Assembly: GCA_016200345.1 (NCBI GenBank)
Contig: JACQEX010000030.1
Span: 6,242-70,241, forward strand
Direction of reading: 5' to 3'
Length of the DNA stretch: 64,000 nucleotides
From: Nitrospinota bacterium
GTDB lineage: Bacteria; Nitrospinota_A; UBA7883; JACRGQ01
Positions 982-31,981 of the stretch are shown here, in pieces (position 1 is the first letter of the stretch; the number at the start of each line of letters is the position of its first letter). The notes beneath the pieces are model-generated. The model ran no database searches and was not told where the DNA came from. It saw only the letters and a list, made by a program, of their open reading frames with translations. The translations under genes were made by a program, and so were the position numbers.

Positions 982-2514
982 TCATTTTGCCGTAACAATG
1001 GCGATGTCGCCGACGTTCCCCGGTGGAAGGACTTTTTTATCGGTTAAATTGGCATTGGCCGCCTTGCCCGTCGCCTGAAGCGCCCTCTGCAACGTGCTTT
1101 TGCGAATGGAGGCTAGCTCGTCGAGCGTGACGCCCATCATCCGCGCAATCTTGGCCCTTTTCTCCTCGTTGGTGAAATTTAACCTGTCCCACTCAAACGC
1201 CCGAAGAATCGTCAATTGTGCGACAGAGAACTCTTCCGTGGAAATGGCGGCCAGCCCCCATCCGATGTCCGAGAAATCGAAGTCCTTGGACAGATAGCCA
1301 CCCGCTACGGCCATGTTGAAAAGCTCAGTTCCCGGATAGGGGGTGGCAATATTTATCTTCGTGTAGTCGGAGTTCATTTCTTCGGCGACCCTGATTGAAT
1401 GCCGTATTTCCTCCCATGTCTCTCCGGGAGAGCCTATGACCCACAGGCTTGTGGTGTCCATCCCAAGCTCGCGGGCCGTGTCGAGCATTTTCTTTGCGTG
1501 AGTGAGGTTAACCGGTTTCCTAATTATTTCCTTTAGAACCCGCGGCACCCCGGATTCCACGGCTATAGACAGATACACGCAACCAGATTCCTTCATCAAA
1601 GCTAGAAGCTCCTCGCTAAGGAAAAACTCGCTCACGTTGGCCGCGTTCCACGCGACGGGCAGTTTGCGCGCGATCATTTCCTTAAAAATTCCGACCGCAC
1701 GGGAGCGGTTGCCAAGAAAATTGTCGTCCAAAAACTCAATGGCGCGAATTCCGTGCTTGTCAATGAGCCATTCAATCTCGTCAACGACGCGCTTTGCCGA
1801 TTGGAAACGGGTCTTCCCGCCCGAAATCGTCTCGACCTGGCAAAAGGTGCACCCTATTGGACAACCCCGGCTGGTAATCATCTTGGCGTACGGAAGGGCG
1901 CGCGGAGCGTCCACTATGTGCTTGAATGACTCGTTGGCGTAGCGGTCGAAATCAATCAGGTCGTTTGACGGAAAAGGGAGGGCGTCGAGGTCTTTGATGA
2001 AATGAACCTGCCGACGAATGTCCGGTTTGTCTCCGGCCATGCGGGCTACCCCCTCCGCCGGAAACTCGCCGTTGCCCTCGATGAAATCAAGAAGTTTTGG
2101 AAATACGTATTCCCCCTCGCCAAGAACGGCAAAGTCCACGTTGGGATTGCGTATGACGTCGAGCGGCCTTGTGGTCGCGCAGACCCCGCCCATGACGGTG
2201 ACTATGCCCGGATTTACCGATTTAACGGCGCCGACGGCCTTTAGCCCGGTCACCAGATATTCGTTTGCCAGCACTGACACTCCGACCACGTCGGGCGCCC
2301 AGCTTTTCACCAAATCCGAAAACTTTTCCGGGCTGTGGTCCTCCAGATTGCTGTCCACTATGCGAACGTCGTACCGCCCCTTTGGCAACGCGGATGCCAG
2401 CAGGGTCAGCGGGTACGGATGCAGATGCCAGAACGAACCTTCGCTCAGCCACTTTGAGTTTGGAGTAACCAGCATTATTTTCTTTATTTGGCCCATATTA
2501 TTTCCCAATTTCAC
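982..2514 (-). CDS. B12-binding (class B) radical SAM protein
   Basis: 510 aa. N-terminal Rossmann-like B12-binding region (IVDSNLEDH...VVGVSV) followed by a CPIGCTFCQ CxxxCxxC radical SAM motif. Confidence 0.8.
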   Translation of the reverse strand: MKLGNNMGQIKKIMLVTPNSKWLSEGSFWHLHPYPLTLLASALPKGRYDVRIVDSNLEDHSPEKFSDLVKSWAPDVVGVSVLANEYLVTGLKAVGAVKSVNPGIVTVMGGVCATTRPLDVIRNPNVDFAVLGEGEYVFPKLLDFIEGNGEFPAEGVARMAGDKPDIRRQVHFIKDLDALPFPSNDLIDFDRYANESFKHIVDAPRALPYAKMITSRGCPIGCTFCQVETISGGKTRFQSAKRVVDEIEWLIDKHGIRAIEFLDDNFLGNRSRAVGIFKEMIARKLPVAWNAANVSEFFLSEELLALMKESGCVYLSIAVESGVPRVLKEIIRKPVNLTHAKKMLDTARELGMDTTSLWVIGSPGETWEEIRHSIRVAEEMNSDYTKINIATPYPGTELFNMAVAGGYLSKDFDFSDIGWGLAAISTEEFSVAQLTILRAFEWDRLNFTNEEKRAKIARMMGVTLDELASIRKSTLQRALQATGKAANANLTDKKVLPPGNVGDIAIVTAK

Positions 2515-2953
2515 CTAATTCATATTTGACCATCAGTTTGTTTATGGCGTCGGTCATGAATGTCAGCGGTATCAAATCCATGTTCCTTTCAAGTTTTGCG
2601 GAAAATAGACTTTTTGTCAGAATGTCGCGCACGGAAAAAAGTCCCATATCCTGCCCCTCCTTAAGCACCGGTTTGTCCTTCAACTCGCAATAAAAGGCGT
2701 GCGCAAGAGTGTTGCCAACCTCGGGCAGGACGTTTGTGTACAGCCAAGCAAGTCCGACGGCCTCTATCTCGAGTTCCTCGTACAGTTCCCTTCTGGCGGC
2801 CTCCTCCGGGGTCTCGCCGTCCTCGACGGCCCCTCCGAAAAAACCCCATTTGCCCGGAAATATAATCTCTTCCTTGAAATCACGCAGTTGTAGCAGTACG
2901 TTTTGGCCCGACAAGGGGAGAATTACGACGACTTCCTTCGGGACTATTGCCAC
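2498..2953 (-). CDS. NUDIX hydrolase
   Basis: Nudix box GKWGFFGGAVEDGETPEEAARRELYEELEIEA. Start uncertain: the track ORF begins at TTG 3037, overlapping the upstream gene by 94 nt; GTG at 2953 is a more conservative start. Confidence 0.65.
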   Translation of the reverse strand: MAIVPKEVVVILPLSGQNVLLQLRDFKEEIIFPGKWGFFGGAVEDGETPEEAARRELYEELEIEAVGLAWLYTNVLPEVGNTLAHAFYCELKDKPVLKEGQDMGLFSVRDILTKSLFSAKLERNMDLIPLTFMTDAINKLMVKYELGEIGK

Positions 2954-3801
2954 GGCATTTCGGTCTTGCAACTCGCGAACAACATTCCTTCCTTGTAGGT
3001 TACCGGCATTTGGGACAACTCCCGCACTCTTTTCCAATTATTTTTTTGCGAAAAGAGGTTTACGCCTTCTTTGTTTAAATGGTTGAAAACCTCCTCGGCG
3101 TTTTTGGCGTTCTCTATCTCGATGAGCCCGTCCGTCTTTTCCCAATGGGACTTTTTCGTCTGGGTGATAATCGTCGCCTCGTGTCCCTCGACGTCCATTT
3201 TTACCAAGTCCGCCCATGCAAACAGGGGGTTCATCGGTTGCAGATTAACCTCAAAGCGCTCCAACTCGCCGTAGGGGTTGGCCTTTGAACCCGCCAAATG
3301 ACTGCCCGTGGTGTTGCCCAAAACGCGCACAAACTCCATCTTCCCCTCGCTGACCGAAACGGCCATGTTATGGCATTCCACCTTTGAACATTCGTTGGCC
3401 TTTAAATTGCGCTTCAACACCTCAAAGGTTTTAGGATCCGGCTCGAAACACCTCACCTCAAAGCCGCATTTGGAGAAGATAACGGAGTGAAGCCCGATAT
3501 TCGCCCCCACGTCCGCAACCCGCTTATATCGTCCCCTATTAAGGTGGTAGAAACTGAAAAGAATTAGCTCGTCCAGATTGAACAGATCCAATGAGTCAAT
3601 GGCCCCCATTTTGTAATATGGAAACACAATTTCCCCGAACGGCCCGAACTTCTTCGGCGCGTCCCCCTTGTCGGAAAAAGACGCCTCCACCTCTTTGCGG
3701 GCGGAAATTTGCAACACCTCGTACAGCTTGGAGCCGCGCGAATGGTGGGCCGAAACCGTGGGCAGGGCGCTTAAAAGGCTTTCAAAAAAAGAATTTTCCA
3801 T
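2944..3801 (-). CDS. FkbM-family methyltransferase
   Basis: VADVGANIGLHS and KMDVEGHE motifs, typical of the FkbM family. Confidence 0.75.
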   Translation of the reverse strand: MENSFFESLLSALPTVSAHHSRGSKLYEVLQISARKEVEASFSDKGDAPKKFGPFGEIVFPYYKMGAIDSLDLFNLDELILFSFYHLNRGRYKRVADVGANIGLHSVIFSKCGFEVRCFEPDPKTFEVLKRNLKANECSKVECHNMAVSVSEGKMEFVRVLGNTTGSHLAGSKANPYGELERFEVNLQPMNPLFAWADLVKMDVEGHEATIITQTKKSHWEKTDGLIEIENAKNAEEVFNHLNKEGVNLFSQKNNWKRVRELSQMPVTYKEGMLFASCKTEMPWQ

Positions 3802-3816
3802 TTTTCTCCTTTAAGA

Positions 3817-4902
3817 CTAGACGAAATTGACGTGATCCGGCGGATGGGTGAGGGCCCACAAAAACTCGTTGATGGCGTGCGTGCGGCAATTGGTGTAGCA
3901 GTCCTTGTGCACGTCAATTAGTTTGACCTTTTCAACCACCTCCCAATAGCGTTCGCTCTCGAAAATCTCCTTGAACGACTTTTCCACCAAGTCCCCCATG
4001 CGATACTCCTCCTCGTGATTTTCGAAAAAGTCGCCGCACGGATAGAGCCGCCCGTTGCCGCTGGAATAAAGCAAAAACGGAACGCCAAGGCACTGGTCGT
4101 AGGTCCTTACCCCTTTGTTCTGCACCTTGTTCCATTTAACGGTCACCTGGTAGTTGTCCGTGGTCTGCTTTTCCGCGTCGCTAAGGATGCTGGTGAAGCC
4201 CTCGTACTCGTCGAGCCGTTTATAAATGCCCAGGGCGTTGTACACCGTGTCCCCGCATTGTTTTACCACCAGATAATCCACGCCCAGCTCCTTGCCGAGT
4301 TTTGCGAGGCCGACCACCTGGTCCACGTCGTTGGGGGTAAGTACCATTTGCAGGCCGATGGTTACCTTGAGGCCTTTTTTTTGCTTCATCTCCACGCAAA
4401 ACCGAATTTTCTTCACCAGCGTGGCAAATTCCTTGCTCCCGTGTATGCGGCGATACCCAGCGTCGTCGGCGGCGCTTATGTTGAACCTTAGCCAGCTAAG
4501 GCGCTCCAAGGCCTCCTCCCCCTGCTTGCCGGTGTCCCAAAGCACGCCGTTGGTGCCGATGGATATGTCCACCCCAGCGTCCGTGCCGGCCACGACCGCC
4601 TCGTACACCGCAGGGTTCAGCAGAGGCTCGGACTCGCCGATAAACGCCATCGAGCGCACGCCGATGGCGCCGGCGTCCCTTACGTACCGCAACAGCGCGT
4701 CGCGCGGGAACACGACCTCGGACCCCTTTCTGTAAAGGTTGCCCTGAACCGCGCCAAAACAGTAGTCGCATTTGATGTTGCATCCCTTGCTCAGGCCGAC
4801 GTCAATGTGCAAAGGCGCCACCCTTTTACCCTGTTTCCAATCGTTGACTCTCTCAAGATGCCAAATAAGTTTGTGCCCGTCCATTACGTATCTGTCTTTC
4901 AC
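3817..4902 (-). CDS. Radical SAM protein (non-B12, Cys-rich SPASM-like C-terminus)
   Basis: CNIKCDYC CxxxCxxC motif near the N-terminus and a C-terminal Cys cluster. Paralog of the protein at 7994..9061, sharing the C-terminal DHVNF[VI] tail. Confidence 0.8.
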   Translation of the reverse strand: MKDRYVMDGHKLIWHLERVNDWKQGKRVAPLHIDVGLSKGCNIKCDYCFGAVQGNLYRKGSEVVFPRDALLRYVRDAGAIGVRSMAFIGESEPLLNPAVYEAVVAGTDAGVDISIGTNGVLWDTGKQGEEALERLSWLRFNISAADDAGYRRIHGSKEFATLVKKIRFCVEMKQKKGLKVTIGLQMVLTPNDVDQVVGLAKLGKELGVDYLVVKQCGDTVYNALGIYKRLDEYEGFTSILSDAEKQTTDNYQVTVKWNKVQNKGVRTYDQCLGVPFLLYSSGNGRLYPCGDFFENHEEEYRMGDLVEKSFKEIFESERYWEVVEKVKLIDVHKDCYTNCRTHAINEFLWALTHPPDHVNFV

Positions 4903-4907
4903 TTTCG

Positions 4908-5774
4908 TTACCTTTCAATAAAATTTAGGCCGTTGCAATATTCGCCGACCGCGTCGCGCCACGGTCGAAGCAATTTGATTTTTTCCGAGTTGAGCGCCGT
5001 TTTTGTGTTCTTTTTCCCGATCGAGGGAAAGTCGTTGTGCGAGACCTTCTCCACTTTTACGTCCTTGGCGCCTATTCGCGCGACGACCTCAACAATAAGG
5101 TCGTGCAACGAGGCCGTCCCCTCGTTCACCACGTGATACACCCCAAAGTCCGGGCCGGACTCCACTATCCTGCGAACCTCGCGGCCCACGTCCCTGCTGT
5201 AGGTCGGCGAGGCAAAAATATCCCCTGAAATTTTAAGCGCCTTCGCGCCGTCCCTGATTTTTTGAATCATGTTTTCGACAAACTGCCCGGTCTGTTTTGT
5301 GGTTTCCCCGAAAAGTATGGAGACGCGAATTATGTAATACCGTTTAGCCCACGCCTGTATCATGCAGTCGCCGCCGTATTTGGTCATGCCGTAAATGCTC
5401 ACCGGCCTCGCGGCGTCGCTCTCCACGTATCTATCACCCTTGCCGTCGTCAAACACGGCGTCCGAGCTAAAATGGACGAGAAGAAACCCTAATTCGTTCG
5501 ATAGCTCCGCCAAAAGTTTTGGGAACAACACGTTCAGCCTGAAGGCCGCCTCAGGGTTCTTTTCGCTCGGATCAATGCCCAAAAACGCCACGGTGTTGAA
5601 AACAATATCGGGCTTTGCTTCCTCTATCACTTTTCGCGTTTGGGCAAAATCCTCCGCCTTGAACCCTTTGCTGTTGAGTCCCGTCACGGAATATCCGCCC
5701 GTAAAAGCCGAGGTCAGGGCCAGGCCCAACTTGCCGGTATTTCCAAGAATGAGAACCTTAGGGCTTTTTGACAA
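4908..5774 (-). CDS. RmlD-like NAD(P)-dependent sugar nucleotide reductase (extended SDR)
   Basis: VLILGNTGKLG glycine-rich N-terminus and YGMTK (YxxxK) catalytic motif. Length and pattern resemble dTDP-4-dehydrorhamnose reductase. Confidence 0.65.
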   Translation of the reverse strand: MSKSPKVLILGNTGKLGLALTSAFTGGYSVTGLNSKGFKAEDFAQTRKVIEEAKPDIVFNTVAFLGIDPSEKNPEAAFRLNVLFPKLLAELSNELGFLLVHFSSDAVFDDGKGDRYVESDAARPVSIYGMTKYGGDCMIQAWAKRYYIIRVSILFGETTKQTGQFVENMIQKIRDGAKALKISGDIFASPTYSRDVGREVRRIVESGPDFGVYHVVNEGTASLHDLIVEVVARIGAKDVKVEKVSHNDFPSIGKKNTKTALNSEKIKLLRPWRDAVGEYCNGLNFIER

Positions 5775-6678
5775 TTTTAAACTCCGATGTAATCGCCCTG
5801 CGTATCTCCGACGCGGATATCCCGTAGTGCTCCCTCATTCCCAAATTGTTTTTTATTTTGTGAATGTACTCGTTTTTAACGCCGAGCTTTCTCAATTTGA
5901 CGTCCACGCCGTTTTCAATAATCCATTCGGCCATGATTGAACCAAGTCCGCCCTGGACGTAGTGCTCCTCCACGGTTATTACGGTTCTTGTATTTTTAAG
6001 CAGTTTTTTCAACCCGCTAAAATCCCCCTCGGTGAGCATCGGAACGGAGATTAACTGCGGCCTGGCCTTAAGCCCCTCGACGGCCTGCATAACCTCAATC
6101 CCGACGGAGCCGTGGAACAAAACGGTCACGCCGCTTCCCTTTTTCACCACTATGGGGGACTCCACGCTTTTCACTTTCTCAGAGTGTATTTTTGGCTCGC
6201 CGTACTTCGCAAGCCTGATGAACGCCGGTTTTTTGCTTTTTATCGCATATTTGGCGCACAATTCTGCCTCCAGCGGGTCGGCGGGGGAGAGCACCACAAG
6301 CCCCGGCAGTGTCCGGGCAACCCCCACGTCCTCGACGGAATAATGGGTGTGCCCCTGCGGTGCGTAGGTTACGCCGCTACCGATGCCGATAAGTGTGACG
6401 GGTAGCTTTTGGTAGCAGAGGTCGTTTCGCACCTGTTCGTAGCATCTGTAGAGCACAAACGGCGTGATGTTATACACAAAAACGTTGTATCCGGCCATGG
6501 CGAGACCGGCTGAAAAGCTAATCATGTTCTGCTCCGCCACGCCGAGGTTGAGGTAACGCTCCGGGAATTTTTTTTGAAATTCGTCCAAAACCCCGAAACC
6601 GGCGTCGCCGGTGACCACGAAAATGCTTTTTTCCTTCTCGGCGGCCTTGGTTATTGTGTCAATGACCGTGTTTCTCAT
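5758..6678 (-). CDS. Transketolase, C-terminal (pyrimidine-binding) subunit
   Basis: 306 aa, split transketolase B subunit pattern (FVVTGDAGFG, LNLGVAEQNM). Overlaps the N-terminal subunit gene by 4 nt. Confidence 0.8.
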   Translation of the reverse strand: MRNTVIDTITKAAEKEKSIFVVTGDAGFGVLDEFQKKFPERYLNLGVAEQNMISFSAGLAMAGYNVFVYNITPFVLYRCYEQVRNDLCYQKLPVTLIGIGSGVTYAPQGHTHYSVEDVGVARTLPGLVVLSPADPLEAELCAKYAIKSKKPAFIRLAKYGEPKIHSEKVKSVESPIVVKKGSGVTVLFHGSVGIEVMQAVEGLKARPQLISVPMLTEGDFSGLKKLLKNTRTVITVEEHYVQGGLGSIMAEWIIENGVDVKLRKLGVKNEYIHKIKNNLGMREHYGISASEIRRAITSEFKIVKKP

Positions 6679-7493
6679 TCCGCCGCCAGTTCTTCGAGGG
6701 CCTGTTTTTTAAACTCGTCCGTCACGATGAAATAATGCCATTTCATCTCGTTTTCCATGAAGGAAACTCCCTTCCCCTTGATGGTTTTTGCGATGATTAT
6801 TTTTGGTTTGCCGTTGGACGGTGCGTCCAATGCGCCGATTAGCTGGCGGTAATCATGGCCCCCCACTTCGTAAACCTGCCATCCGAACGCCTCCCACTTG
6901 GCCCTGACCGGCTCGTAATGGCAAATTTCCGTCGGGCGGCCGTAACCCTGAAGGTTGTTGTAGTCCAATAGCACCGTGAAGTTGTCAATTCCAAGCTTCG
7001 GGGCGAACAACGCCCCCTCCCATATCGAGCCTTCCTGCGACTCGCCGTCGCCTATGACGCTATAGACGTTTCGATTTTCACCCTTTTGTTTGAACACGTA
7101 CGCCATGCCCAATCCCATGTTGAACCCGTGACCAAGCGAACCGACCGACGCCTCGATTGCCTTGTTCGTAAACCGGTCAAGGTGGGCCGGTAGTTTGCCG
7201 TTGTTCTGAAGATATTGGAAAAGGTCGGGCTTGCTTATAAATCCCCTCAGCGTCAGGTTGGCGTAAAGCGCCATCGCCGAGTGCCCCTTACTGAGAATGA
7301 AAATATCCCGATTCTTCCAATCCTTCGGGTCTATTCGCAACTTATAAAAATAGAGCGTCGTAATCATGTCTACGCACGAAAGGGACGAGCCGATGTGCGC
7401 GCTTTTGGACTTGTTGGCAATTTCTATCATAAGCCGGCGAGCCTCGCGCGCCTTGGTCGAAATCAGTTTTTCCTCGGACTCTAGATTATCCAT
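6675..7493 (-). CDS. Transketolase, N-terminal (TPP-binding) subunit
   Basis: 272 aa, SAHIGSSLSC...GHGF...GDGESQEG transketolase TPP-binding motifs. Confidence 0.8.
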   Translation of the reverse strand: MDNLESEEKLISTKAREARRLMIEIANKSKSAHIGSSLSCVDMITTLYFYKLRIDPKDWKNRDIFILSKGHSAMALYANLTLRGFISKPDLFQYLQNNGKLPAHLDRFTNKAIEASVGSLGHGFNMGLGMAYVFKQKGENRNVYSVIGDGESQEGSIWEGALFAPKLGIDNFTVLLDYNNLQGYGRPTEICHYEPVRAKWEAFGWQVYEVGGHDYRQLIGALDAPSNGKPKIIIAKTIKGKGVSFMENEMKWHYFIVTDEFKKQALEELAAE

Positions 7494-7523
7494 TTTAAAT
7501 ATTTGCCGACTTGCGTTTTCCGA

Positions 7524-7979: not shown

Positions 7980-7993
7980 ATTAAAATTCCTTG

Positions 7994-11660: not shown

Positions 11661-11665
11661 TATTT

Positions 11666-25572: not shown

Positions 25573-25594
25573 TTCCCCTCTATAATTTGACGTG

Positions 25595-26752
25595 TTACCA
25601 GGAAACAATCGCGCTACTTGGAATGTTTACGACCCTATCCTCAAGCCATTTTGCGTCCGACAAATCGGTCGTCTGGCAATCTTTAAACATCGCAAGCTCG
25701 TTCATCAGCCGCCACGCCGGGCGCGTCATTACGCCCGCGTTGTTTGTCTCCCTCAAAAACTGGTCCCGCGCCCCCCTGTCCTTTAAGACGACGGCGTTCA
25801 GCCAAAAATTCGAGGCGGAGTTCGGCGGTTCCTTGACGAAGGCCATGGATGACCCGGCGAAAAACTCCTCGTATTTGCGGGCGATTTTTCTTTTGCTCTC
25901 CAAAAAGCGCGGAAGATTTTCCAACTGCGCGCATCCAAGCGCGGCGTTTATGTTTGGCAGGCGATAGTTATATCCAATTTCATCGTGGACAAACTCGTAC
26001 TGGTGCGGAACCTTCGCCGTCGTCGTTATGTGCTTGGCCCGTTTAGACAGCGCCTCGTCGTCGGTTAACACCATCCCCCCGCCGCCGGTCGTGATAGTTT
26101 TGTTTCCGTTAAAGCTCAGGACGCCCATTCTGCCAAACGTCCCGGTGTGTCTTCCCTTAAAAAAACTTCCAAGGCTTTCCGCGGCATCCTCCACCAGCGG
26201 GACGCCGAACTCGTCGCAGATTTTTGCTATTTCGTCAATCCTACACGGATGGCCGAAGGTGTGCATCGGAACCGCCGCGCCGATTTTTCGCCCCGTCGCC
26301 TTGTTAAAACAACCGCCATTTTTTCTCGAAGTCTCCTTGGATAAAAAATCTTTCAGACTTTTCGGGCTCATCCCGAGGGTGTCTCTTTCAACGTCAACGA
26401 AGACCGGCCTCGCGCCGCAATAACTTATTGCGTTGCAGGTCGCCACGAACGACAGCGGCTGGGTCAGCACCTCGTCGTCGTTTTTAACGCCGGCCAGCCT
26501 AAGCGCGACGTGCAGGGCCGCCGTGCCGTTTACGGTGGCCACGGCGTATTTGGCCCCGGTGTACTCCGACATCATCTTCTCAAAACGATCCACGTACTTG
26601 CCAACGCTTGAAACAAACGTGGTGTCTATGCAGTCCGCGACATACGCCTTCTCGTTGCCCACGAATTTTGGCTCGTGCAACGAAATAAACTCCGTCGTGC
26701 CGTAAACGGCTCGGACGAAGTCCACCGCGTCCTTGTACGATTTTTCAATCAC
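25595..26752 (-). CDS. DegT/DnrJ/EryC1/StrS-family sugar aminotransferase (LegC/PseC-like)
   Basis: GTAALHVAL...DEV...SFNGNK (PLP-lysine)...GGGG pattern of the family. Confidence 0.85.
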   Translation of the reverse strand: MIEKSYKDAVDFVRAVYGTTEFISLHEPKFVGNEKAYVADCIDTTFVSSVGKYVDRFEKMMSEYTGAKYAVATVNGTAALHVALRLAGVKNDDEVLTQPLSFVATCNAISYCGARPVFVDVERDTLGMSPKSLKDFLSKETSRKNGGCFNKATGRKIGAAVPMHTFGHPCRIDEIAKICDEFGVPLVEDAAESLGSFFKGRHTGTFGRMGVLSFNGNKTITTGGGGMVLTDDEALSKRAKHITTTAKVPHQYEFVHDEIGYNYRLPNINAALGCAQLENLPRFLESKRKIARKYEEFFAGSSMAFVKEPPNSASNFWLNAVVLKDRGARDQFLRETNNAGVMTRPAWRLMNELAMFKDCQTTDLSDAKWLEDRVVNIPSSAIVSW

Positions 26753-26865
26753 CGTGTTTTTCCATATTCATTTTTTTTGAAGGGCGGGTACCGCCAGCGC
26801 CAGCCGCGTCCGCGCGACCACCGGTAAAATCACCGGTGGTTCCGCGACGGAGGGGCGCGAAAGTC

Positions 26866-27567
26866 TTAAGGTTTTCTGATGAAGGCCGGAACGTGACAGG
26901 ATGTCTTCTCAATCCTTAATTTTTTCCCCTTAACAAAGTCATCAATCGCCTGGGTGCCGCCCGCTATGTAGTTGTAGTCGTCCAATACTATGACGCCGTT
27001 TGGAACCACCCTGTCGTACAGCATCTCAAGCGCGAAGGCGGTAGGCTCCTTCACGTCCATGTCCAGATGAAGATAGGCTATTTTAGTCTCCGGATTTTTT
27101 GCCAAGTACGAGGGAAGGGTCTCGAACACGTTCCCCTTGACCAGAAAAATATTCTTGAAATCTTTCTTGGCGAGGATTGACTTCAGTTCGTCCAGCGAGA
27201 GCCCGTCTCCGCTGTCTTTTGCGAAGTAATCAATAAAATCCAGGTCTTTTTTCAATTTTATGTTTTTATCGGGAAATTTGCCGAAGGTGTCGAAACCGAC
27301 AATCTTGCGCGAATAGTCGTTCTCCAAATAATTTCTAAAACCCGCGAGGCGAAGCAACGACGTGCCCTTAAAAACCCCCAGCTCCAAAACATGCCCCGGA
27401 AGCCCGACTATGCTTTTATACAGCTCGTAGTGGGCGAGCATCTTGTTTAGCCTTGTTTGGTGCGCAAACCAGGAAAACCCGTTTTCAAAATCCCAAAATT
27501 TGTTGCTTGAGAGCCCCCGGACGGTCAAATTTTTTCCCAATAACGTGCTAGAGCTAACCTTTTTCAT
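26866..27567 (-). CDS. TylF/MycF-family SAM-dependent O-methyltransferase
   Basis: GVFKGTS...KGNVFETLP...LHLDMD motifs typical of the macrocin O-methyltransferase family. Confidence 0.7.
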   Translation of the reverse strand: MKKVSSSTLLGKNLTVRGLSSNKFWDFENGFSWFAHQTRLNKMLAHYELYKSIVGLPGHVLELGVFKGTSLLRLAGFRNYLENDYSRKIVGFDTFGKFPDKNIKLKKDLDFIDYFAKDSGDGLSLDELKSILAKKDFKNIFLVKGNVFETLPSYLAKNPETKIAYLHLDMDVKEPTAFALEMLYDRVVPNGVIVLDDYNYIAGGTQAIDDFVKGKKLRIEKTSCHVPAFIRKP

Positions 27568-27635
27568 TCTAATCCCTTATTTTTTTGAGCCAAAAACGAG
27601 TATCTTCCCCACCGCCGGTTTTAGCAACCTGACTT

Positions 27636-28445
27636 TTACCATGCGGACAATCCGCCGTCAACCATCAACACCTGCCCGGTGATGTAAGACGCCGCGTCTG
27701 TGCAAAGAAACAGTATCGGCGCCGCAATTTGGTCCGGGCTGGCCATTTTGTTTAACGGAACCAGCTTATTATACTTTTCCACAAACACAGGGTTTTGGTT
27801 GTCGAACACTCCGCCCGGACACACCGCGTTTACCCTGATGTTATGTTTGGCGTAATAGGTTGCGAGGTACCTTGAAAAATTAACTATCCCCCCCTTTATA
27901 AGCGAATAGGGGGCGGTCATGGTCATTGCGGTGCCCTCGTAAACCGAGAAATTAGGCCCCAAAACGCCGTAATGCGAGCCGATGTTAATCAGCACCCCGC
28001 TTTGCCTTTTTTTCATCTCCTCCAATGCCTTCTGGCAACATAAGAAATAACCGTTCATATGCATGTCCACGTTTTTTCTCATGTAGTCCATGTCTATGTC
28101 CTCGAACTTTTTGCCCCAGTCCTTCGTCCTTGGGTAGGCGTTGTTTATCCAGACGTCTATTTTCCCGAATTTTTTGACGATTTCAGCGACTGCGTTTGAA
28201 ACCGATTCGTCCGAGGTGATGTCTATTTCCGCAAGCTCCGCCTTGAATCCGGCCCCGGTTATTTTGTCCTTCAGCGCCGTTCCCCTGGCCTTGTCGTTTT
28301 CCGCGATGACCACGGTCGCGCCAGCCTCCGAAAGTGCGCGGCAAATCTCCGATCCGATGAGCCCCGCCCCGCCCGTTACGACGGCGACTTTGTCATGGAG
28401 GCTAAATTTTTCCGGAAAAATCATGTTTCTGTTCTCCTTATTCAT
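27636..28445 (-). CDS. SDR-family oxidoreductase
   Basis: VAVVTGGAGLIG cofactor motif, NNA, YSLIK (YxxxK). The start may be the internal M8 (MIFPEKF). Confidence 0.75.
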   Translation of the reverse strand: MNKENRNMIFPEKFSLHDKVAVVTGGAGLIGSEICRALSEAGATVVIAENDKARGTALKDKITGAGFKAELAEIDITSDESVSNAVAEIVKKFGKIDVWINNAYPRTKDWGKKFEDIDMDYMRKNVDMHMNGYFLCCQKALEEMKKRQSGVLINIGSHYGVLGPNFSVYEGTAMTMTAPYSLIKGGIVNFSRYLATYYAKHNIRVNAVCPGGVFDNQNPVFVEKYNKLVPLNKMASPDQIAAPILFLCTDAASYITGQVLMVDGGLSAW

Positions 28446-28477
28446 GCCGAGAATCCACCCGGTCGGTTGCCGTTAGA

Positions 28478-29572
28478 TTAAATAAGAGCGTCGTCCGGGC
28501 AGTCGCCAAGCTGAACCTGTCCGGACAAATACATTCCTGCCTGCCTGTTGTATTCGATGCACCGGCAGTTAGCGCAGACCCCGGCGGCGTAATTGCCGTT
28601 CAAGGCGAGGATGACTTCCCTATGGCGCGGCGAGTTCCAAACGTCCTTAAAGCGCGCGTTGTTAAGGTTTCCTATGCAATACCTTTCGTTTCCGATGTGC
28701 GGCTGGCAAAGGTACACCCCGCCGTCGTAATTTATCCAGGCCGTGGCCCTTGTCATTATGGAGGCGCATGAGTCCGGCGGCGGCTCGATTCCGATTCTAT
28801 AATCCTTGGCCGCGTAATGGTGCAGGCCACGGTTCAAAATGGAGCGCACGTTTGTGGTTTTTGGGTCGAAAATATCAATGTTCCCCTCCAAGTCGGCGCG
28901 AATTTGCGCCGCCTCGGCCTCGGAAAACTCCAGCCCCTTTTTCTCGTAGTCTATGGCAGGGATAAAAATCACGTAGTCAAAACCGGAAGCCATGGCGTTT
29001 TTGTAGACGTCCGCCACCTCGCGGTGGTTCACGCGGTTTATGACGCACCGCGCGCCGACGACGACGTTTGAGCCGTTCCCCTTGACCATGTTTGGAAGCT
29101 GAAACTGTTTTTTGAACTGGTCGCTTCCGGTTATGGCCTTGTAATGCTCCTCGTTTGTCGAGTAAATGGAAACGGCTATGTAGTTAAAGCGCCTCAACAA
29201 CGGGACGTCGGCGTCTTTTATGGCGATTCCGTTGGTGACAAGGGCGACCTCGACCCCGTTGTCCAGCAGTTTACCGGCGTATTTATCCCAGTTTTTCACC
29301 ATCGTCGGCTCTCCCCCGCCGGCCAAATAGGCGCTTTTTACGCCAAGCGACAACAGGTCGTCAATGGTTGATTCAATCTGCTCGTCGGAGACCCGGAGGT
29401 ATTTCTTTCTTCGATTGCCGTAGGAACAATGGACGCAGTCGTAATTACATGCGGAGGTCCAGTGGAACTCGACCGACACCGGCCCGAGAGAGAGCGGATC
29501 CGCCCCCTTGCGCCGTTCAAAGTGGGGCACGAATTTTTTTGCCGAAAGCAACGTCTCCAGGTTGTATTTCAT
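28478..29572 (-). CDS. Radical SAM protein (non-B12, Cys-rich C-terminus)
   Basis: CNYDCVHC motif and a C-terminal CANCRC cluster. Start set at the internal ATG (MKYNLE) to avoid overlapping the upstream gene. Confidence 0.7.
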   Translation of the reverse strand: MKYNLETLLSAKKFVPHFERRKGADPLSLGPVSVEFHWTSACNYDCVHCSYGNRRKKYLRVSDEQIESTIDDLLSLGVKSAYLAGGGEPTMVKNWDKYAGKLLDNGVEVALVTNGIAIKDADVPLLRRFNYIAVSIYSTNEEHYKAITGSDQFKKQFQLPNMVKGNGSNVVVGARCVINRVNHREVADVYKNAMASGFDYVIFIPAIDYEKKGLEFSEAEAAQIRADLEGNIDIFDPKTTNVRSILNRGLHHYAAKDYRIGIEPPPDSCASIMTRATAWINYDGGVYLCQPHIGNERYCIGNLNNARFKDVWNSPRHREVILALNGNYAAGVCANCRCIEYNRQAGMYLSGQVQLGDCPDDALI

Positions 29573-29597
29573 TTTGTCAGATATTTCCGAAAGCCGC

Positions 29598-30266
29598 CTA
29601 AAACGACATCTCCATGACGCGGCCCACGACGTCCAGCTGTTTTTCATGGTCAAAAGAATTGTTCTCCGCCGTCCATTCGACAAACGCCGGTTCGCACACC
29701 AAAACCTTGTCGAACTCCAGATTTTTTATGTCGGGATATTTGAACACGGCCGTCCCGCCGGGGGAAACCGTGCTTTCGCCGTCGCCTACGAGCCTCCCGA
29801 CAAGGACAAGCCCCTCGGAGCTGGTGATGTTGAGCGCGGCGATGTCCGCCAGCTCGTTGCTCCCGGCCACCGCAAGTTTTTGCCACCCCCTGCTTTTGCA
29901 AAGCTCCAGCTGGCTCTCCACCACTTTTTGGGCGACCTTATAAGTTCGCAGGGTGTTGCCCAAATATCTTGCGGTGAGCCTGCCTTTCTCGGCGAACCCC
30001 TCCGGCGTCATGTAATAAAGCCACCTCTTTGCGCTAACCTGTCGCGCCTTAATCCACCCCTTAGCCATAACCTTTCGCATGAACGAGTGGGCAAGGCCCG
30101 CCGCTATTCCCGTAAACGCCGTTATTTTTTTTTCGGAGATGTGCGGAAACTTTTCCACCAGGCTGAAAATGTGCATTACCACGGCGTCGTCCGCAGACGC
30201 CTTGACCGACGAATATGGGGAAACCGGCGAGAGATCCGGACTTTCCAAGGTTTGTTTGTTTTTCAT
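29598..30266 (-). CDS. Hypothetical protein with N-terminal winged-helix-like domain (putative regulator)
   Basis: MHIFSLVEKFPHISEKKITAFTGIAAGLAHSFMRKVMAKGWIKAR resembles a wHTH. Unassigned C-terminal domain. Confidence 0.35.
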   Translation of the reverse strand: MKNKQTLESPDLSPVSPYSSVKASADDAVVMHIFSLVEKFPHISEKKITAFTGIAAGLAHSFMRKVMAKGWIKARQVSAKRWLYYMTPEGFAEKGRLTARYLGNTLRTYKVAQKVVESQLELCKSRGWQKLAVAGSNELADIAALNITSSEGLVLVGRLVGDGESTVSPGGTAVFKYPDIKNLEFDKVLVCEPAFVEWTAENNSFDHEKQLDVVGRVMEMSF

Positions 30267-30350
30267 AAGAATTTGGGCGCGCCTACGGCCTCACTGGTTG
30301 TCAAGCTCTTCACGCAATCCATAAAATTAAAAAGGCAAAACTAAAAAGGG

Positions 30351-30890
30351 TTAGTACGGCTCCAATAAATCCGATTCAAGCTCCGTGACCAAAGCCCTTT
30401 TAAATAAATCCAATGAGACGATAAACCGCCCCGTCTTGGGGCTTATGCGAACAAATTGCCCGTACGCACCGGCCAGCGGCCCCGCCACAACGTGCACGCG
30501 CTCCCCCGCGACCATCGGGGTGTACGGCAGTTCGTAAACGGGCGCCGGGGAACAGGCCATCTTTTCCAGGCGCAACACCTGGTCGTTTGGGATGACGGCA
30601 GGACTGCCGTCTTGACGGACAAACCCCAAAACGCCTTTGTGAGAAAACAGCATCTTGGTTTCTACGGCCTCGATGTCGGCTTCAACAAACACGTAGTTGC
30701 TCAACAGCGGTTTTATTACGGCAACCTTCTGTCCGTTCCTTCTTTTCCACACGTCCCTTGCCGGAACGCTGACTTTTAAGCCGAAATGATTTTTGAAAAA
30801 TTCCGAGACGCTAAATTCATTTTGATGCCTAACCCTGAGCGCAAACCACCCGCAATCAACGGTGTAGGGCGAAACCAGCGCATTGCTCAT
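30351..30890 (-). CDS. NusG-family paralog (RfaH/UpxY/LoaP-like operon-specific antiterminator)
   Basis: 179 aa. NGN domain (WFALRVRHQNE...) and a C-terminal KOW (GERVHVVAGPLAGAYGQF). Shorter than housekeeping NusG and sits at the 5' end of the polysaccharide operon. Confidence 0.75.
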   Translation of the reverse strand: MSNALVSPYTVDCGWFALRVRHQNEFSVSEFFKNHFGLKVSVPARDVWKRRNGQKVAVIKPLLSNYVFVEADIEAVETKMLFSHKGVLGFVRQDGSPAVIPNDQVLRLEKMACSPAPVYELPYTPMVAGERVHVVAGPLAGAYGQFVRISPKTGRFIVSLDLFKRALVTELESDLLEPY

Positions 30891-31000
30891 AATGTGAGCA
30901 TTGTACCCCTAAAGCGGTGGAATTGGCAAATTTTATTTTGTTGTGCGACTGAAAAATGACCTTTTCAGCTATATTCATATTTATGCGGAATTAGCAATAA

Positions 31001-31981
31001 TTATGTAATGGGACAGGCGTCGTATCGGGCGGAACCATAACGATTAAAATGTTCCGTCAAAGAGTCGAGAAACGGCTCGTGTAACATCCTAGCCTCTCTT
31101 AGCGTCGGCAGGTCGCACCTGCCGTCCAGCAATATCCCCTCCACAACCGAACTCGTCGTTTCGCTTTGCAAATAGTCGAACCTTGCGTTGTGACGAACCC
31201 AAACCCATTTGCCTACGCGCGTGGCGATTTCATAGGTGTTGTCGGCCTCGCGGATTTTTAGGGCCACTTCCGCCGACGTTATCGTTATCTCCACCGGCGA
31301 GATAACTTCCCCGCAATAAAATGAAAAACCGTTCGCCCCCAAACTCCCGGAAAGCTCGCCGGAAACCTCCTTGAATCCGGGTCTTTTTGACTCAAGAATT
31401 TTCTTGTCAAGACCGCCGTTTGAAACAACCAAACCCTCGCAATCGGTCAGGTAGGCAAGCAGGTCGAGAAAATGAAGTCCGTTGCACGCCATACCCCAGC
31501 TACCGCCCGCGACTTTCAACTCAATCGGCCCCGTCCCTTTTAGCGCAGTTTTGATTTTTTTGTAGACTGGATAAAGCCTTCTTGGATGATTGACCCAGGC
31601 TCGAATATTTTTGCGCTCCAGCAGTTTGCCGACGTCCTCAAAATCGGATTTTTTTTGAAATACCACTTTTTCCAAAATAAGATTTTTAACGCCCTTCTTC
31701 TCCGCCAATTCCCTCACCAAATTAGAACGAACGTCGGCGTTGGTGGCGACTATAGCGAGGTCCAACTCGTCAGACAGACCCGAGACTCCGTCTCGGACCA
31801 CCAATTCCATGGCCTCGCTTCCGACAATCTCTTTAAACCTGGACAGGGCCGTATTTATAGCCCCTTCAGAGCGCCCCACCACCTCTATGCTTGCACCAAT
31901 CCCAAGTCCGGCCAACCCCTGCAAGTATCTGCTTCCGATTTGGCCGGGGCCGATTAACGCGATTTTGAACGTCTTGGTCAT
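31001..31981 (-). CDS. Gfo/Idh/MocA-family oxidoreductase
   Basis: KIALIGPGQIGSRY Rossmann N-terminus and an EKV motif. First gene downstream of the palindrome array. Confidence 0.75.
   Translation of the reverse strand: MTKTFKIALIGPGQIGSRYLQGLAGLGIGASIEVVGRSEGAINTALSRFKEIVGSEAMELVVRDGVSGLSDELDLAIVATNADVRSNLVRELAEKKGVKNLILEKVVFQKKSDFEDVGKLLERKNIRAWVNHPRRLYPVYKKIKTALKGTGPIELKVAGGSWGMACNGLHFLDLLAYLTDCEGLVVSNGGLDKKILESKRPGFKEVSGELSGSLGANGFSFYCGEVISPVEITITSAEVALKIREADNTYEIATRVGKWVWVRHNARFDYLQSETTSSVVEGILLDGRCDLPTLREARMLHEPFLDSLTEHFNRYGSARYDACPIT

Follow-up and report, generated by a model that had tools for sequence, protein, structure and literature searches.

A probable surface-glycan locus in a Nitrospinota bacterium joins two conserved sugar modules, each with radical SAM tailoring enzymes

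Analysis of a 64,000-nt stretch of a Nitrospinota contig (hereinafter the window) points with fairly good confidence to a chromosomal surface-glycan locus that joins two conserved sugar modules, A and B, each with dedicated radical SAM tailoring enzymes. This reading starts from what is directly observed in the domain identities of the encoded proteins, the packing of their genes, and synteny across phyla (Table 1; genes are designated by their leftmost coordinates).

Table 1. Features of the locus and its upstream end, with the basis of each assignment
Feature	Position	Strand	Basis or remark
Class I methyltransferase	3..932	-	Cut by window edge; 316 aa on full contig
B12-binding-domain radical SAM	982..2496	-	Pfam; nearest solved relative AprD4
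NUDIX hydrolase	2498..2971	-	Domain match
FkbM-family methyltransferase	2944..3801	-	Domain match
Second radical SAM/SPASM	3817..4902	-	Paralogue of 7994, 29% identity
RmlD-like NDP-4-keto-sugar reductase	4908..5774	-	191 bits, below cutoff 224
Split transketolase	5758..7493	-	N-terminal ThDP subunit 6675-7493; pyrimidine-binding/C-terminal subunit 5758-6678
NUDIX hydrolase	7524..7979	-	Domain match
355-aa radical SAM, one auxiliary-cluster Cys set, module B hub	7994..9061	-	Pfam; DesII-like fold
GmhA-like SIS ketose-phosphate isomerase	9054..9632	-	8-nt overlap with 7994 gene
Nucleotidyltransferase (NT) + PfkB sugar-kinase fusion	9643..11187	-	HldE-like, two domains in reversed order
Stand-alone HldE-domain-II-like nucleotidyltransferase, 159 aa after start refinement	11190..11669	-	NCBIfam
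GSU2086-family protein, module B start	11666..12664	-	363 bits vs cutoff 250
LA_1612-family (Leptospira) putative O-antigen biosynthesis protein	12673..13818	-	TIGR04441 328 bits vs cutoff 150
B12-binding-domain radical SAM	13896..15284	-	Pfam
GT-B-fold protein, orphan family	15324..16628	-	35 relatives found; no Pfam domain
B12-binding radical SAM, TokK/CysS/KedN5 type	16647..18638	-	Pfam, NCBIfam
CN-hydrolase, amidase-type	18675..19460	-	Domain match
Class III aminotransferase/aminomutase-like	19460..20767	-	PRK06209 680 bits vs cutoff 486
CTP_transf_3 cytidylyltransferase (CMP-nonulosonate synthetase)	20813..21550	-	PseF 152 bits, below cutoff 206
CBS + NTP_transferase sugar-1-phosphate nucleotidyltransferase	21547..22617	-	PtmE-like architecture
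NeuC/LegG-type hydrolysing NDP-sugar 2-epimerase	22665..23816	-	TIGR03568 477 bits vs cutoff 236
NeuB/LegI-type nonulosonate synthase	23813..24808	-	TIGR03569 529 bits vs cutoff 400
Class I SAM methyltransferase	24817..25608	-	Domain match
LegC-family sugar aminotransferase	25595..26752	-	TIGR04181 568 bits vs cutoff 420
TylF-type SAM O-methyltransferase	26866..27567	-	Domain match
SDR oxidoreductase, PtmA-like	27636..28445	-	PRK09186
Radical SAM with full SPASM, 7 Cys after core; module A's first biosynthetic gene	28478..29575	-	Pfam
MarR-family EPS-associated-regulator-like protein	29598..30266	-	TIGR04176 50 bits, below cutoff 88
NusG paralogue, UpxY/LoaP/RfaH-like operon antiterminator	30351..30890	-	UpxY 89.8 bits vs cutoff 100
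Gfo/Idh/MocA oxidoreductase, PtmF-like position in legionaminic-type cluster	31001..31981	-	Domain match
Four 19-nt palindromes, TTACTCA-N5-TGAGCAA, 23-nt spacing	32009..32097	.	Repeat search
914-aa multi-pass membrane protein	32142..34886	-	Weak PMT_2 (GT-C glycosyltransferase) match

A motif scan of every ORF of at least 120 aa recovered exactly seven CX3CX2C proteins in the window, six on the minus strand (982, 3817, 7994, 13896, 16647, and 28478) and one on the plus strand (37430), in agreement with the original prediction of six radical SAM enzymes in the locus and seven in the window. All six locus proteins pass the Pfam Radical_SAM cutoff, and their proposed division into three B12-binding (982, 13896, and 16647) and three Cys-rich versions without B12 binding (3817, 7994, and 28478) is reproduced by above-cutoff Pfam matches to the B12-binding and SPASM domains, respectively; 37430, compared with NCBIfam models, resembles B12 radical SAM enzymes (HpnJ at 238 bits, along with further models of this type, each short of its cutoff). 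If radical SAM enzymes are assumed to make up ~1–2% of genes (our assumption), 0.3–0.6 would be expected among 32 genes as against six observed, an excess far beyond chance. Pairwise identity among the seven radical SAM proteins is only 19–30%, so they did not arise by recent duplication.

With refined starts, the minus-strand run comprises 32 genes up to position 31,981, or 33 with the GT-C gene at 32142, rather than the 29 counted earlier; several first-start ORF coordinates were overlong (e.g., exact-protein look-up places the start of 982 at 2496). The run has a median gap of 14.5 nt, nine overlaps, and a largest gap of 160 nt, and 97.7% of positions 1–31,981 is coding. Nor does the locus end near position 1, as had been proposed: on the same contig it continues for at least 6.4 kb further left, with genes for a TIGR04372 glycosyltransferase, an MsbA/PglK-like ABC exporter, a methyltransferase, a 490-aa B12 radical SAM enzyme (the seventh of the locus), and a 4,6-dehydratase-like protein, for a total of at least 38 kb and no fewer than 38 co-directional genes. 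The notion of a single super-operon is overstated: the locus combines two modules, each of which is found on its own elsewhere, and runs past the window edge. At its other end, directly upstream of the locus and co-directional with it, 32142 is a candidate glycan transferase or polymerase (PF13231, 25.6 bits, just below the 26.1 cutoff; no match among NCBIfam models). The 160-nt gap upstream of 31001 holds the palindrome array (direct family D1; inverted repeats I4 and I5, 95% and 79% complementary), a candidate operator array. A sigma-70-like promoter site (30929–30900) lies ahead of the UpxY-like gene, and the locus is probably transcribed as one or a few long transcripts under this UpxY/RfaH-like antiterminator.

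The enzymatic complement was largely as first described: domain matches recovered the nonulosonic-acid genes (NeuB, NeuC, and CMP-synthetase), the heptose-like genes, both aminotransferases (25595 and 19460), two NUDIX hydrolases (2498 and 7524), the SDR (27636), Gfo/Idh/MocA (31001), and CN-hydrolase (18675) proteins, and four SAM methyltransferases (the partial 3–932, 2944, 24817, and 26866). The glycerol-phosphate enzymes found no support, as the small cytidylyltransferase 11190 scores 111 bits on HldE domain II but 39 bits on glycerol-3-phosphate cytidylyltransferase.

Module A (about 12.7–32 kb) is centered on nonulosonic-acid (NulO) genes of the legionaminic type. The window encodes no LegH-type acetyltransferase, and the legionaminic pathway is thus incomplete there; the sole LegB-like dehydratase lies to the left of the window and scores 105 against a cutoff of 475, far below it. 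We compared the module A synteny in five contexts: 16647/13896-type genes occur in nonulosonic-acid clusters in four of the five other loci, the fifth (archaeal, L098) being without sugar genes. Homologues of 16647 that are 45–55% identical lie inside legionaminic-type clusters of Fundidesulfovibrio butyratiphilus (L096), L097, L099, and Saganbacteria (L100). In L099, whose cluster adjoins Maf, FlaF, FlbT, and flagellin genes, an orthologue of 13896 (64% identity) sits between NeuC and NeuB. Orthologues of 21547 occur in L096 and L099, and the L100 cluster also holds Gfo/Idh/MocA and Aminotran_3 genes. The start of 16647 was set at 18638 after a 663-aa public protein (P0121), the first-ATG ORF reaching 18671; a further homologue (P0203) occurs as a natural fusion with a CTP_transf_3 cytidylyltransferase domain that has only an N-terminal motif in common with the window's CMP-nonulosonate synthetase. 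As in the window, the TokK-like gene of L096 is followed immediately downstream by a relative of 15324. The structural model of 15324 adopts a GT-B fold with matches including TarL, TagF, Bcs3 solved with CMP, a polysialyltransferase, and WaaA, making it a putative transferase that would use a CMP- or CDP-activated donor.

Module B (1–12.7 kb and beyond the left edge) begins with 11666, which shows faint similarity to the deoxyhypusine-synthase/ArgZ Rossmann domains, and comprises a non-canonical, heptose-like nucleotide-sugar cassette around 7994. Its heptose-like enzymes all score below the equivalog cutoffs and the gene set is devoid of a GmhB phosphatase, so the sugar may not be a heptose. 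At E≤1e-10, the family of 7994 numbers more than 4800 relatives, of which the best 120 (355–363 aa, 62–69% identical) carry source names including Nitrospinota, Thermodesulfovibrionales, Omnitrophota, Brocadiaceae, Scalindua, and Dissulfurispiraceae. With the versions in genome loci of Elusimicrobia, Magnetominusculus, and a Nitrospirae MAG (59–60%), the homologues overall are 58–69% identical and span several phyla by source assignment. Gene order is kept in Scalindua (L010), Omnitrophota (L012), and an unassigned metagenome contig (L014), and an orthologue of 982 (45% identical) is present in the Omnitrophota cassette. Across 35 related loci of at least 12 kb each, the 7994 type is accompanied by the NT-PfkB fusion in 26, the transketolase N- and C-terminal subunits in 20 and 14, respectively, the SIS isomerase in 19, and a 3817-type radical SAM in 18; in each of the 17 loci with complete flanks, radical SAM genes number two to four. 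Elsewhere these cassettes adjoin Wza, Wzi, Wzx, NeuB, GT2, and PMT-type genes. Hence, all five of the radical SAM types whose context in relatives was compared stay beside sugar genes rather than being dispersed, the outcome that would have refuted the original proposal, the 7994, 3817, and 982 types in the heptose-like cassette and the 16647 and 13896 types in nonulosonic-acid clusters, which makes radical-tailored sugars, as originally proposed, a sound and well-supported reading.

The accompanying proposal of heavy C-methylation fared less well. TokK and CysS are structurally characterised cobalamin C-methyltransferases, whereas AprD4 (a diol dehydratase), OxsB, HpnJ, and BchE are non-methylases. 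By sequence, the likeliest genuine cobalamin-dependent C-methyltransferase is 16647, with the nonulosonic acid or its CMP ester as the predicted substrate: it matches TokK (154 bits over about 430 residues) and CysS (145 bits) across both the B12 and radical SAM domains, and among NCBIfam models it scores highest on the KedN5 C-methyltransferase subfamily (185 bits), with every non-methylase model far behind. The proposal is limited to this enzyme because 982 and 13896 resemble non-methylating enzymes, being nearest to AprD4 (89 and 59 bits, respectively) and OxsB with comparable scores on the HpnJ and BchE models; a B12 domain here therefore implies neither methylation nor even cobalamin use. 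The three SPASM enzymes more likely perform epimerase, dehydratase, or oxidoreductase chemistry, and among solved structures 7994 is closest in fold to DesII, a radical SAM enzyme of TDP-sugars (E 3e-17, TM 0.66), with BlsE also among the nearest. These affinities, together with at least five conventional SAM methyltransferases in the locus, lend some weight to a glycan locus in which no radical SAM enzyme methylates carbon, all methyls coming from the conventional enzymes and the radical chemistry on sugars being dehydration/deamination, epimerisation, oxidation, decarboxylation, or ring rearrangement; given the TokK, CysS, and KedN5 matches of 16647, we regard this as possible but rather unlikely.

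Readings that dispense with a surface glycan fit less well still. That the nearest characterised radical SAM relatives (TokK, CysS, AprD4, DesII, BlsE, and KedN5) all come from antibiotic pathways, in a locus that also encodes NUDIX hydrolases, numerous methyltransferases, and an ABC exporter, might suggest an aminoglycoside-, nucleoside-, or glycolipid-type secondary-metabolite cluster. We consider this improbable in view of the nonulosonate synthase, LegC, and NeuC genes (all above curated cutoffs), the CMP-synthetase (PseF match below cutoff), the Leptospira O-antigen family protein, the UpxY-like antiterminator, the GT-C membrane protein, and the TIGR04372 glycosyltransferase with its MsbA/PglK-like flippase; moreover, PKS, NRPS, and cyclitol synthase genes are absent from the locus, and the modules of relatives adjoin Wza, Wzi, and Wzx capsule genes as well as Maf and flagellin genes. 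Even less probable is that the SPASM proteins mature peptides or proteins (as in RiPP or anaerobic-sulfatase-type cofactor maturation) and merely happen to adjoin sugar genes. SPASM domains are typical of peptide-modifying enzymes, and SuiB, SkfB, and anSME are among the fold matches, but the NCBIfam matches to sactipeptide, tungsten-cofactor, and sulfatase maturases are weak and all far below cutoffs, and structure comparison ranks a TDP-sugar enzyme first. Further, the gaps flanking the SPASM genes (−8 to 32 nt, in 97.7% coding DNA) leave no room for peptide precursor ORFs, 7994 overlaps the GmhA-like gene, and the sugar-nucleotide neighbors are constant across related loci. Fortuitous clustering or a gene-calling artefact, for which we found no support, is ruled out by seven independent Pfam or NCBIfam radical SAM matches and exact public protein records, and synteny in other phyla also speaks against it.

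Under the favored interpretation of a surface-glycan locus, we infer the substrates, reaction types, and final glycoconjugate as follows. In module A, the LegC-type aminotransferase, NeuC-type epimerase, NeuB-type synthase, PtmE-like nucleotidyltransferase, and cytidylyltransferase would produce a CMP-activated legionaminic-acid-type nonulosonic acid, of which 16647 most likely methylates an unactivated carbon, either of the sugar itself or of its N-acyl group. Further changes may be made by 13896, 28478, two SAM methyltransferases, the class III aminotransferase, and the amidase, and 15324 would transfer the product. In module B, the split transketolase is predicted to supply a ketose phosphate, which the GmhA-like isomerase would convert to an aldose phosphate for activation by the PfkB kinase and nucleotidyltransferase domains, yielding a heptose-like NDP-sugar; 7994, its paralogue 3817, and the RmlD-like reductase could then reshape the carbon skeleton by deoxygenation, epimerisation, or oxidation, with 982 and methyltransferases adding decorations. 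The TIGR04372 glycosyltransferase and the MsbA/PglK-like exporter would serve in assembly and export. Though our literature search found no paper that describes these modules or connects radical SAM enzymes with such sugars, modules of the same enzymes and sugar genes are also present in several other groups of bacteria.

A scan of ORFs of at least 120 aa for the CX3CX2C motif recovered exactly seven proteins in the window, six of them encoded on the minus strand between 982 and 29683 and the seventh at 37430 on the plus strand. Profile searches upheld the original prediction that the six in the co-directional glycan locus are radical SAM enzymes (PF04055, 42–82 bits for all six against a gathering score of 29.5), with an N-terminal B12-binding domain in the products of 982, 13896 and 16647 (PF02310, 66, 71 and 40 bits; cutoff 32.1) and a C-terminal SPASM domain in those of 3817, 7994 and 28478 (PF13186, 28, 30 and 42 bits; cutoff 21.5; genes are named by their lower coordinate). 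Seven cysteines follow the radical SAM core in 28478 and five each in 7994 and 3817; four of the five are invariant across the 7994 family, which fits a single auxiliary cluster. The product of 37430 resembles B12 radical SAM enzymes by NCBIfam only (top model HpnJ, 238 bits, below cutoff), and the curated NCBIfam radical SAM cutoffs were reached neither by any of the seven window enzymes nor by a 490-aa B12 enzyme encoded to the left of the window. Since the seven share 19–30% pairwise identity, they represent distinct families, and a recent expansion of paralogues is ruled out. If 1–2% of genes are taken to encode radical SAM enzymes, an assumption of our own, six among 32 genes is far above expectation and far beyond chance clustering.

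The co-directional minus-strand run stood as predicted, but its gene count (previously 29), some start codons and its extent had to be corrected. With starts refined from public gene calls, it comprises 32 genes from the left edge to 31981, or 33 with the co-directional GT-C membrane protein gene at 32142–34886; for instance, an exact public protein match places the start of the 982 gene at 2496 and shows the GTG start at 2514 to be wrong. Genes in 1–31981 are tightly packed, with a median intergenic gap of 14.5 nt, nine overlaps, a largest gap of 160 nt and 97.7% coding sequence. Domain searches recovered every one of the accessory enzymes named earlier (methyltransferases, NUDIX hydrolases, an SDR, a Gfo/Idh/MocA oxidoreductase, aminotransferases and a CN-hydrolase). 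Public records list identical proteins from a Nitrospinae/Nitrospinota metagenome-assembled genome. On the same contig in the public assembly, the locus runs at least 6.4 kb past the window's left edge. Rightward beyond 43 kb lies ordinary chromosome, with RecN-like, NAD kinase, BamD-like and FtsZ genes.

Principal features of the locus and its left flank, in locus order within each group (scores in bits against model cutoffs)
Position	Strand	Feature	Remarks
31001	-	Gfo/Idh/MocA oxidoreductase	first of the run
30351	-	NusG paralogue, nearest UpxY, LoaP, RfaH	second; NusG N-terminal domain
29598	-	MarR-type EPS-regulator-like protein	third
27636	-	SDR, PtmA-like	PtmA model 183 bits
25595	-	LegC-family aminotransferase	568 bits, cutoff 420
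23813	-	NeuB/LegI-type synthase	529 bits, cutoff 400
22665	-	NeuC/LegG-type hydrolysing 2-epimerase	477 bits, cutoff 236
21547	-	CBS+NTP_transferase protein, PtmE-like	
20813	-	CTP_transf_3 cytidylyltransferase	Pfam 85 bits, above cutoff
11666	-	GSU2086-family protein	363 bits, cutoff 250
11190	-	HldE-domain-II-like nucleotidyltransferase	159 aa
9643	-	nucleotidyltransferase + PfkB kinase fusion	domain order reverse of HldE
9054	-	GmhA-like SIS isomerase	
7994	-	radical SAM	SPASM
7524	-	NUDIX	
6675 and 5758	-	split transketolase	
4908	-	RmlD-like reductase	
3817	-	radical SAM	paralogue of 7994
2944	-	FkbM methyltransferase	
2498	-	NUDIX	
982	-	B12 radical SAM	
left of window, 1st		methyltransferase	cut by window edge, complete there
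left of window, 2nd		TIGR04372-family glycosyltransferase	
left of window, 3rd		MsbA/PglK/HepA-like ABC exporter	
left of window, 4th		further methyltransferase	
left of window, 5th		B12 radical SAM	490 aa
left of window, 6th		4,6-dehydratase-like gene	

The head-of-operon position of the NusG paralogue is compatible with an UpxY/RfaH-type antiterminator role (UpxY 89.8 bits, cutoff 100; RfaH 54, cutoff 144), and a strong sigma-70-like site lies just upstream of it at 30929–30900. Like the UpxY/RfaH operons of Bacteroides capsule and enterobacterial LPS/capsule, the locus is a very long co-directional polysaccharide run headed by a NusG-paralogue gene; unlike them, it has a Nitrospinota host, an UpxY score just under the cutoff, a MarR-like regulator and an array of four palindromes. 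This array, noticed earlier near 32000, was borne out as four 19-nt palindromes (TTACTCA-N5-TGAGCAA) at an exact 23-nt spacing (32009–32097) between the GT-C gene and the 31001 gene. Such an arrangement suggests an operator with several binding sites for a dimeric regulator, perhaps the MarR-like protein. Across the whole window, no Rfam family, riboswitch or otherwise, reached its threshold. The cumulative GC skew has a local minimum of about -1.66 at 34000–36000, coinciding with the minus-to-plus switch in gene orientation, and then rises to roughly 50 kb; AT skew changes sign near 32 kb. Several plus-strand genes lie to the right. At 35446–37411, a ZIP metal transporter carries a fused cupredoxin domain, an uncommon combination with no relation to the glycan locus, and is followed by CcmH-like and zinc-ribbon proteins. 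A separate group at 37430–42407 encodes the seventh radical SAM enzyme together with a class I methyltransferase, a DUF1420 membrane protein (40527), of a family known from Leptospira, and a short GT2 similar to polyprenyl-phosphate glycosyltransferases (AglJ/PpgS-like); this group may be a system that modifies a lipid-linked sugar with a radical SAM enzyme of its own. Further along, a minus-strand Orn/DAP/Arg decarboxylase ORF (51382–52275) matches only positions 93–246 of the 247-position PLP-binding domain model and may be truncated or have a mis-set start.

The part of the locus at about 12.7–32 kb (module A) encodes a nonulosonic acid (NulO) gene set that, with Ptm roles assigned to its members, resembles the GDP-linked legionaminic acid route of Campylobacter. 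As in the Leg/Ptm pathway of C. jejuni (GDP-GlcNAc route) and other NulO (nab) clusters, LegC, NeuB/LegI and NeuC/LegG score above their cutoffs and are accompanied by CBS+NTP_transferase, SDR and Gfo/Idh/MocA genes and by a putative CMP-synthetase gene, at 152 bits against the PseF equivalog (cutoff 206). Unlike those systems, the window has no LegH, with no hexapeptide acetyltransferase gene in 1–32 kb (97.7% of the sequence accounted for), and no convincing LegB, the sole dehydratase-like gene lying left of the window and scoring 105 against a cutoff of 475. Both genes may lie elsewhere in the genome. Three related clusters in other genomes (L096, L099 and L100) each have a PglD-like acetyltransferase gene, whereas the window's legionaminic-type set lacks the LegH type; a Fe-ADH gene likewise recurs in all three and is absent from the window. 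Without LegH, the N7 amine might stay free or receive a different modification. Beyond the known pathways, module A carries an amidase, a class III aminotransferase, one SPASM and two B12-domain radical SAM enzymes, and the orphan protein with a GT-B fold. To our knowledge, no described NulO pathway includes any of these, and the literature searches brought none of them up.

The 16647 protein is the one window radical SAM enzyme for which sequence comparison finds clear characterised relatives. TokK and CysS are cobalamin-dependent C-methyltransferases; the alignment of 16647 to TokK covers about 430 residues and scores 154 bits, that to CysS scores 145 bits, and the top NCBIfam model for 16647 is the KedN5 C-methyltransferase subfamily (185 bits, cutoff 700). 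It shares with the TokK/ThnK/CysS/KedN5 class B methyltransferases an N-terminal B12-binding domain and a radical SAM core; unlike them, it is encoded in a nonulosonic acid cluster and not in a carbapenem, cystobactamid or enediyne cluster. At E≤1e-20 the 16647 family comprises 2315 members, with source names that include Nitrospirota, Pseudomonadota, Chloroflexota, Omnitrophota, CPR bacteria, Saganbacteria and one Woesearchaeota archaeon, and one member comes from a cultured strain, Fundidesulfovibrio butyratiphilus JCM 15519.

We compared module A with five other genomic contexts (L096–L100: L096, L097, L098, L099 and L100). The F. butyratiphilus strain (L096) has a complete legionaminic-type cluster with both B12 radical SAM types, the Fe-ADH and a SPASM enzyme. 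The same set forms a complete cluster in L099 directly beside genes for a Maf-type flagellin glycosyltransferase, FlaF, FlbT and two flagellins, and the glycan acceptor there is very probably flagellin. The Saganbacteria locus (L100) is also a NulO cluster with a 16647-type gene. In the NulO cluster L097, the 16647-type enzyme is fused to a CTP_transf_3 domain (P0203, 160–2883) and followed by a SPASM radical SAM; this domain matches the window synthetase at an N-terminal motif only, so we take the fusion as supportive rather than decisive. The archaeal context (L098) has no sugar cluster around the 16647-type gene, only a SPASM radical SAM gene immediately downstream.

Other components of module A recur in these clusters. 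An orthologue of 13896 (64% identical) lies between NeuC and NeuB in L099, and a relative at 31% identity occurs in L096. A SPASM enzyme of about 330 aa beside the TokK-like gene in other loci was considered as the 28478 orthologue and rejected, at 21% identity. The 15324 protein belongs to an orphan family of 35 sequences without a Pfam domain, with nearly invariant 'FLD' and 'HP' motifs; its homologue in L096 is encoded directly downstream of the TokK-like gene, the same position as in the window. Its predicted structure (pLDDT 88.6) is a two-Rossmann GT-B fold, and among its best structural matches are TarL and TagF, NeuC-type epimerases, Bcs3 (a capsule polymerase solved with CMP), a polysialyltransferase and WaaA, a Kdo transferase. 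By fold it resembles GT-B glycosyltransferases of the CMP-/CDP-donor type (TagF/TarL, polysialyltransferase, Kdo transferase), and we read it as a candidate transferase for a modified CMP-sugar.

The part from 1 to 12.7 kb and the left flank (module B) is heptose-like. As in the ADP-L-glycero-D-manno-heptose pathway, it has an SIS isomerase, a PfkB kinase and an HldE-domain-II-type nucleotidyltransferase; unlike it, it has a reversed fusion order and an extra stand-alone nucleotidyltransferase, and adds a split transketolase, two radical SAM enzymes, an RmlD-like reductase and a GSU2086-family protein. The heptose equivalogs were not reached (GmhA 97–104 bits, cutoffs 209–276; HldE 166, cutoff 521) and GmhB and HldD were absent in domain and equivalog searches of the module, which makes it related to the canonical ADP-heptose pathway but not identical. 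The earlier call of glycerol-phosphate enzymes fails, because the small nucleotidyltransferase is not of the TagD type (TIGR01518, 39 bits, cutoff 165) and scores higher, at 111, with the HldE-domain-II model. Just before the module, the 12673 protein falls in the LA_1612 family (328 bits, cutoff 150), as in the Leptospira O-antigen (rfb) locus, a comparison by family and not by locus in which only single families are common to both.

Over 4800 relatives of 7994 were found at E≤1e-10; the top 120 are 355–363 aa long, 62–69% identical to 7994 and, by source names, from several phyla. A reference-genome scan with the single 7994 sequence found three close loci, and an alignment-based scan found metagenome loci, most of which carry no taxonomic assignment; homologues in both are 58–67% identical. 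The family alignment has 112 invariant columns, including the four cysteines beyond the SAM cluster. A C-terminal H-x-N-F is invariant (consensus HVNFI), and the paralogue 3817 ends in HVNFV. At about 355 aa throughout and 58–69% identity over several phyla, this is unusually strong conservation for a tailoring enzyme. DesII is a radical SAM enzyme that acts on a TDP-sugar, and it is the closest fold to the predicted structure of 7994 (pLDDT 81.7; E 3e-17, TM 0.66), followed by SuiB, SkfB, BlsE, anSME, MoaA and viperin.

Module B gene order is kept in Scalindua, Omnitrophota and one unassigned metagenome contig, the Omnitrophota cassette including a 982 orthologue (45% identical). Of 35 related loci 12 kb or longer, 26 encode the nucleotidyltransferase-PfkB fusion, 20 the transketolase N subunit, 19 the SIS isomerase, 18 a 3817-type radical SAM and 12 the GSU2086 protein, and roughly half have a B12 radical SAM of some kind. 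All 17 fully flanked 7994-type loci have two to four radical SAM genes within 21 kb; with five in the same span, the window is at the high end. Adjoining genes in such loci encode, among others, Wza, Wzi, Wzx, NeuB, GT2 and PMT-type GT-C proteins, a TIGR04372-type glycosyltransferase and an ABC exporter. In the Omnitrophota locus L012, the transketolase pyrimidine-binding subunit is shortened (164 aa; 306 aa in the window) and an IS110-family transposase gene (12709–13737) closely follows it, which suggests recent disruption.

The analysis establishes the domain identities, the tight co-directional packing, and the conservation of both modules beside sugar-activation, transfer and export genes in other lineages. 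On this basis, we propose that module A would make a CMP-activated legionaminic-type sugar, which 16647 would C-methylate, possibly more than once by analogy with TokK and CysS, and which 13896, 28478, the class III aminotransferase, the amidase and two methyltransferases may alter further before 15324 transfers it. In module B, the transketolase, the isomerase and then the kinase and nucleotidyltransferase would yield an NDP-heptose-like sugar, its skeleton re-tailored by 7994, 3817 and the RmlD-like reductase and decorated by 982 and methyltransferases. Assembly and export of the glycan would fall to the TIGR04372 glycosyltransferase and the ABC exporter, perhaps with the GT-C protein 32142. 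Jointly, the modules may make undescribed monosaccharides: carbon-alkylated (branched or chain-extended) legionaminic-type NulOs, by action of the TokK-like enzyme on the free or CMP-activated sugar, and a radical-rearranged heptose- or octose-like NDP-sugar. These would be found widely among environmental bacteria, candidate-phyla bacteria and some archaea, on cell surfaces and flagella, and could explain undescribed NulO variants of anammox S-layers (m/z 261, 275 and 289). To this joint reading, offered tentatively, we give somewhat less than even weight.

That no radical SAM enzyme in the locus methylates, all performing other chemistry, is a serious alternative for 982 and 13896: their closest solved relatives, AprD4 and OxsB, are not methylases, and non-methylase models (HpnJ, BchE and a ladderane lipid enzyme) score alongside P-methyltransferase models (Sden_1168 and PhpK). 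Such chemistry is the default for the SPASM enzymes and less likely for 16647, whose closest characterised relatives are methylases (TokK, CysS and KedN5). In antibiotic pathways, sugars are known to be tailored by radical SAM enzymes (DesII, AprD4, GenK and BlsE), and as in these the window's enzymes are embedded among sugar-nucleotide enzymes. By fold 7994 is closest to DesII, and among solved proteins AprD4 is nearest in sequence to 982 and 13896, these likenesses being remote, at 15–19% identity and about 33–89 bits. The context is unlike those pathways, a cell-surface glycan locus with export and transfer machinery, and its NulO core, O-antigen family protein, putative antiterminator and flippase-type exporter, together with capsule or flagellin neighbours in relatives, make a secondary-metabolite cluster unlikely. 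A role of the SPASM enzymes as peptide (RiPP) maturases is likewise unlikely, since precursor genes would have no space, the 7994 and isomerase genes overlap by 8 nt and the same sugar-gene neighbours of 7994 are kept in other phyla.

NulO and heptose pathways are well known, but we found no description of their combination with conserved uncharacterised radical SAM tailoring sets. Full-text searches, whose coverage excludes most subscription journals, found no relevant paper on radical SAM enzymes together with any of nonulosonic, legionaminic and pseudaminic acid, Leptospira rfb, or the set of heptose, transketolase and cytidylyltransferase. The nearest mention is a list of Campylobacter fetus phase-variable genes with two MoaA/SPASM radical SAM genes (at annotation level), methyltransferases, an SDR and a formyltransferase-domain protein (PMC6321876). 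The S-layer of the anammox bacterium Kuenenia bears heavily methylated glycans, heptose chains and 'yet-undescribed' NulO derivatives, whose fragments are those three m/z values (PMC5088730; bioRxiv 10.1101/2020.12.03.409086), spaced, as we note, by 14 Da, and an unmasked amine is reported for its nonulosonic acids (bioRxiv 10.1101/2020.12.03.409086). SugarBase and the two anammox S-layer papers describe the relevant sugars without a link to genes. Scalindua carries module B, and the 7994 homologues on record include one from a Brocadiaceae MAG; as a lead, the Kuenenia sugars could correspond to the chemistry of these modules.

NulOs and heptoses are major determinants of bacterial surface identity, with effects on recognition by phages and the immune system, on flagellar assembly and on S-layer properties. 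As far as we know, every modification described for them is placed on an O or N atom by an ordinary transferase, and remodelling of sugars at the carbon level has been described only for antibiotic pathways. The conserved association of cobalamin and SPASM radical SAM enzymes with these NulO and heptose pathways implies that surface sugars are remodelled in this way. The 7994 (>4800, E≤1e-10) and 16647 (>2300, E≤1e-20) families are large and, by source names, span many phyla, and the locus provides a functional context for the orphan families GSU2086, LA_1612, TIGR04372 and that of 15324. With a 16647-family member in a cultured strain and another beside flagellin genes, the hypothesis is directly testable.
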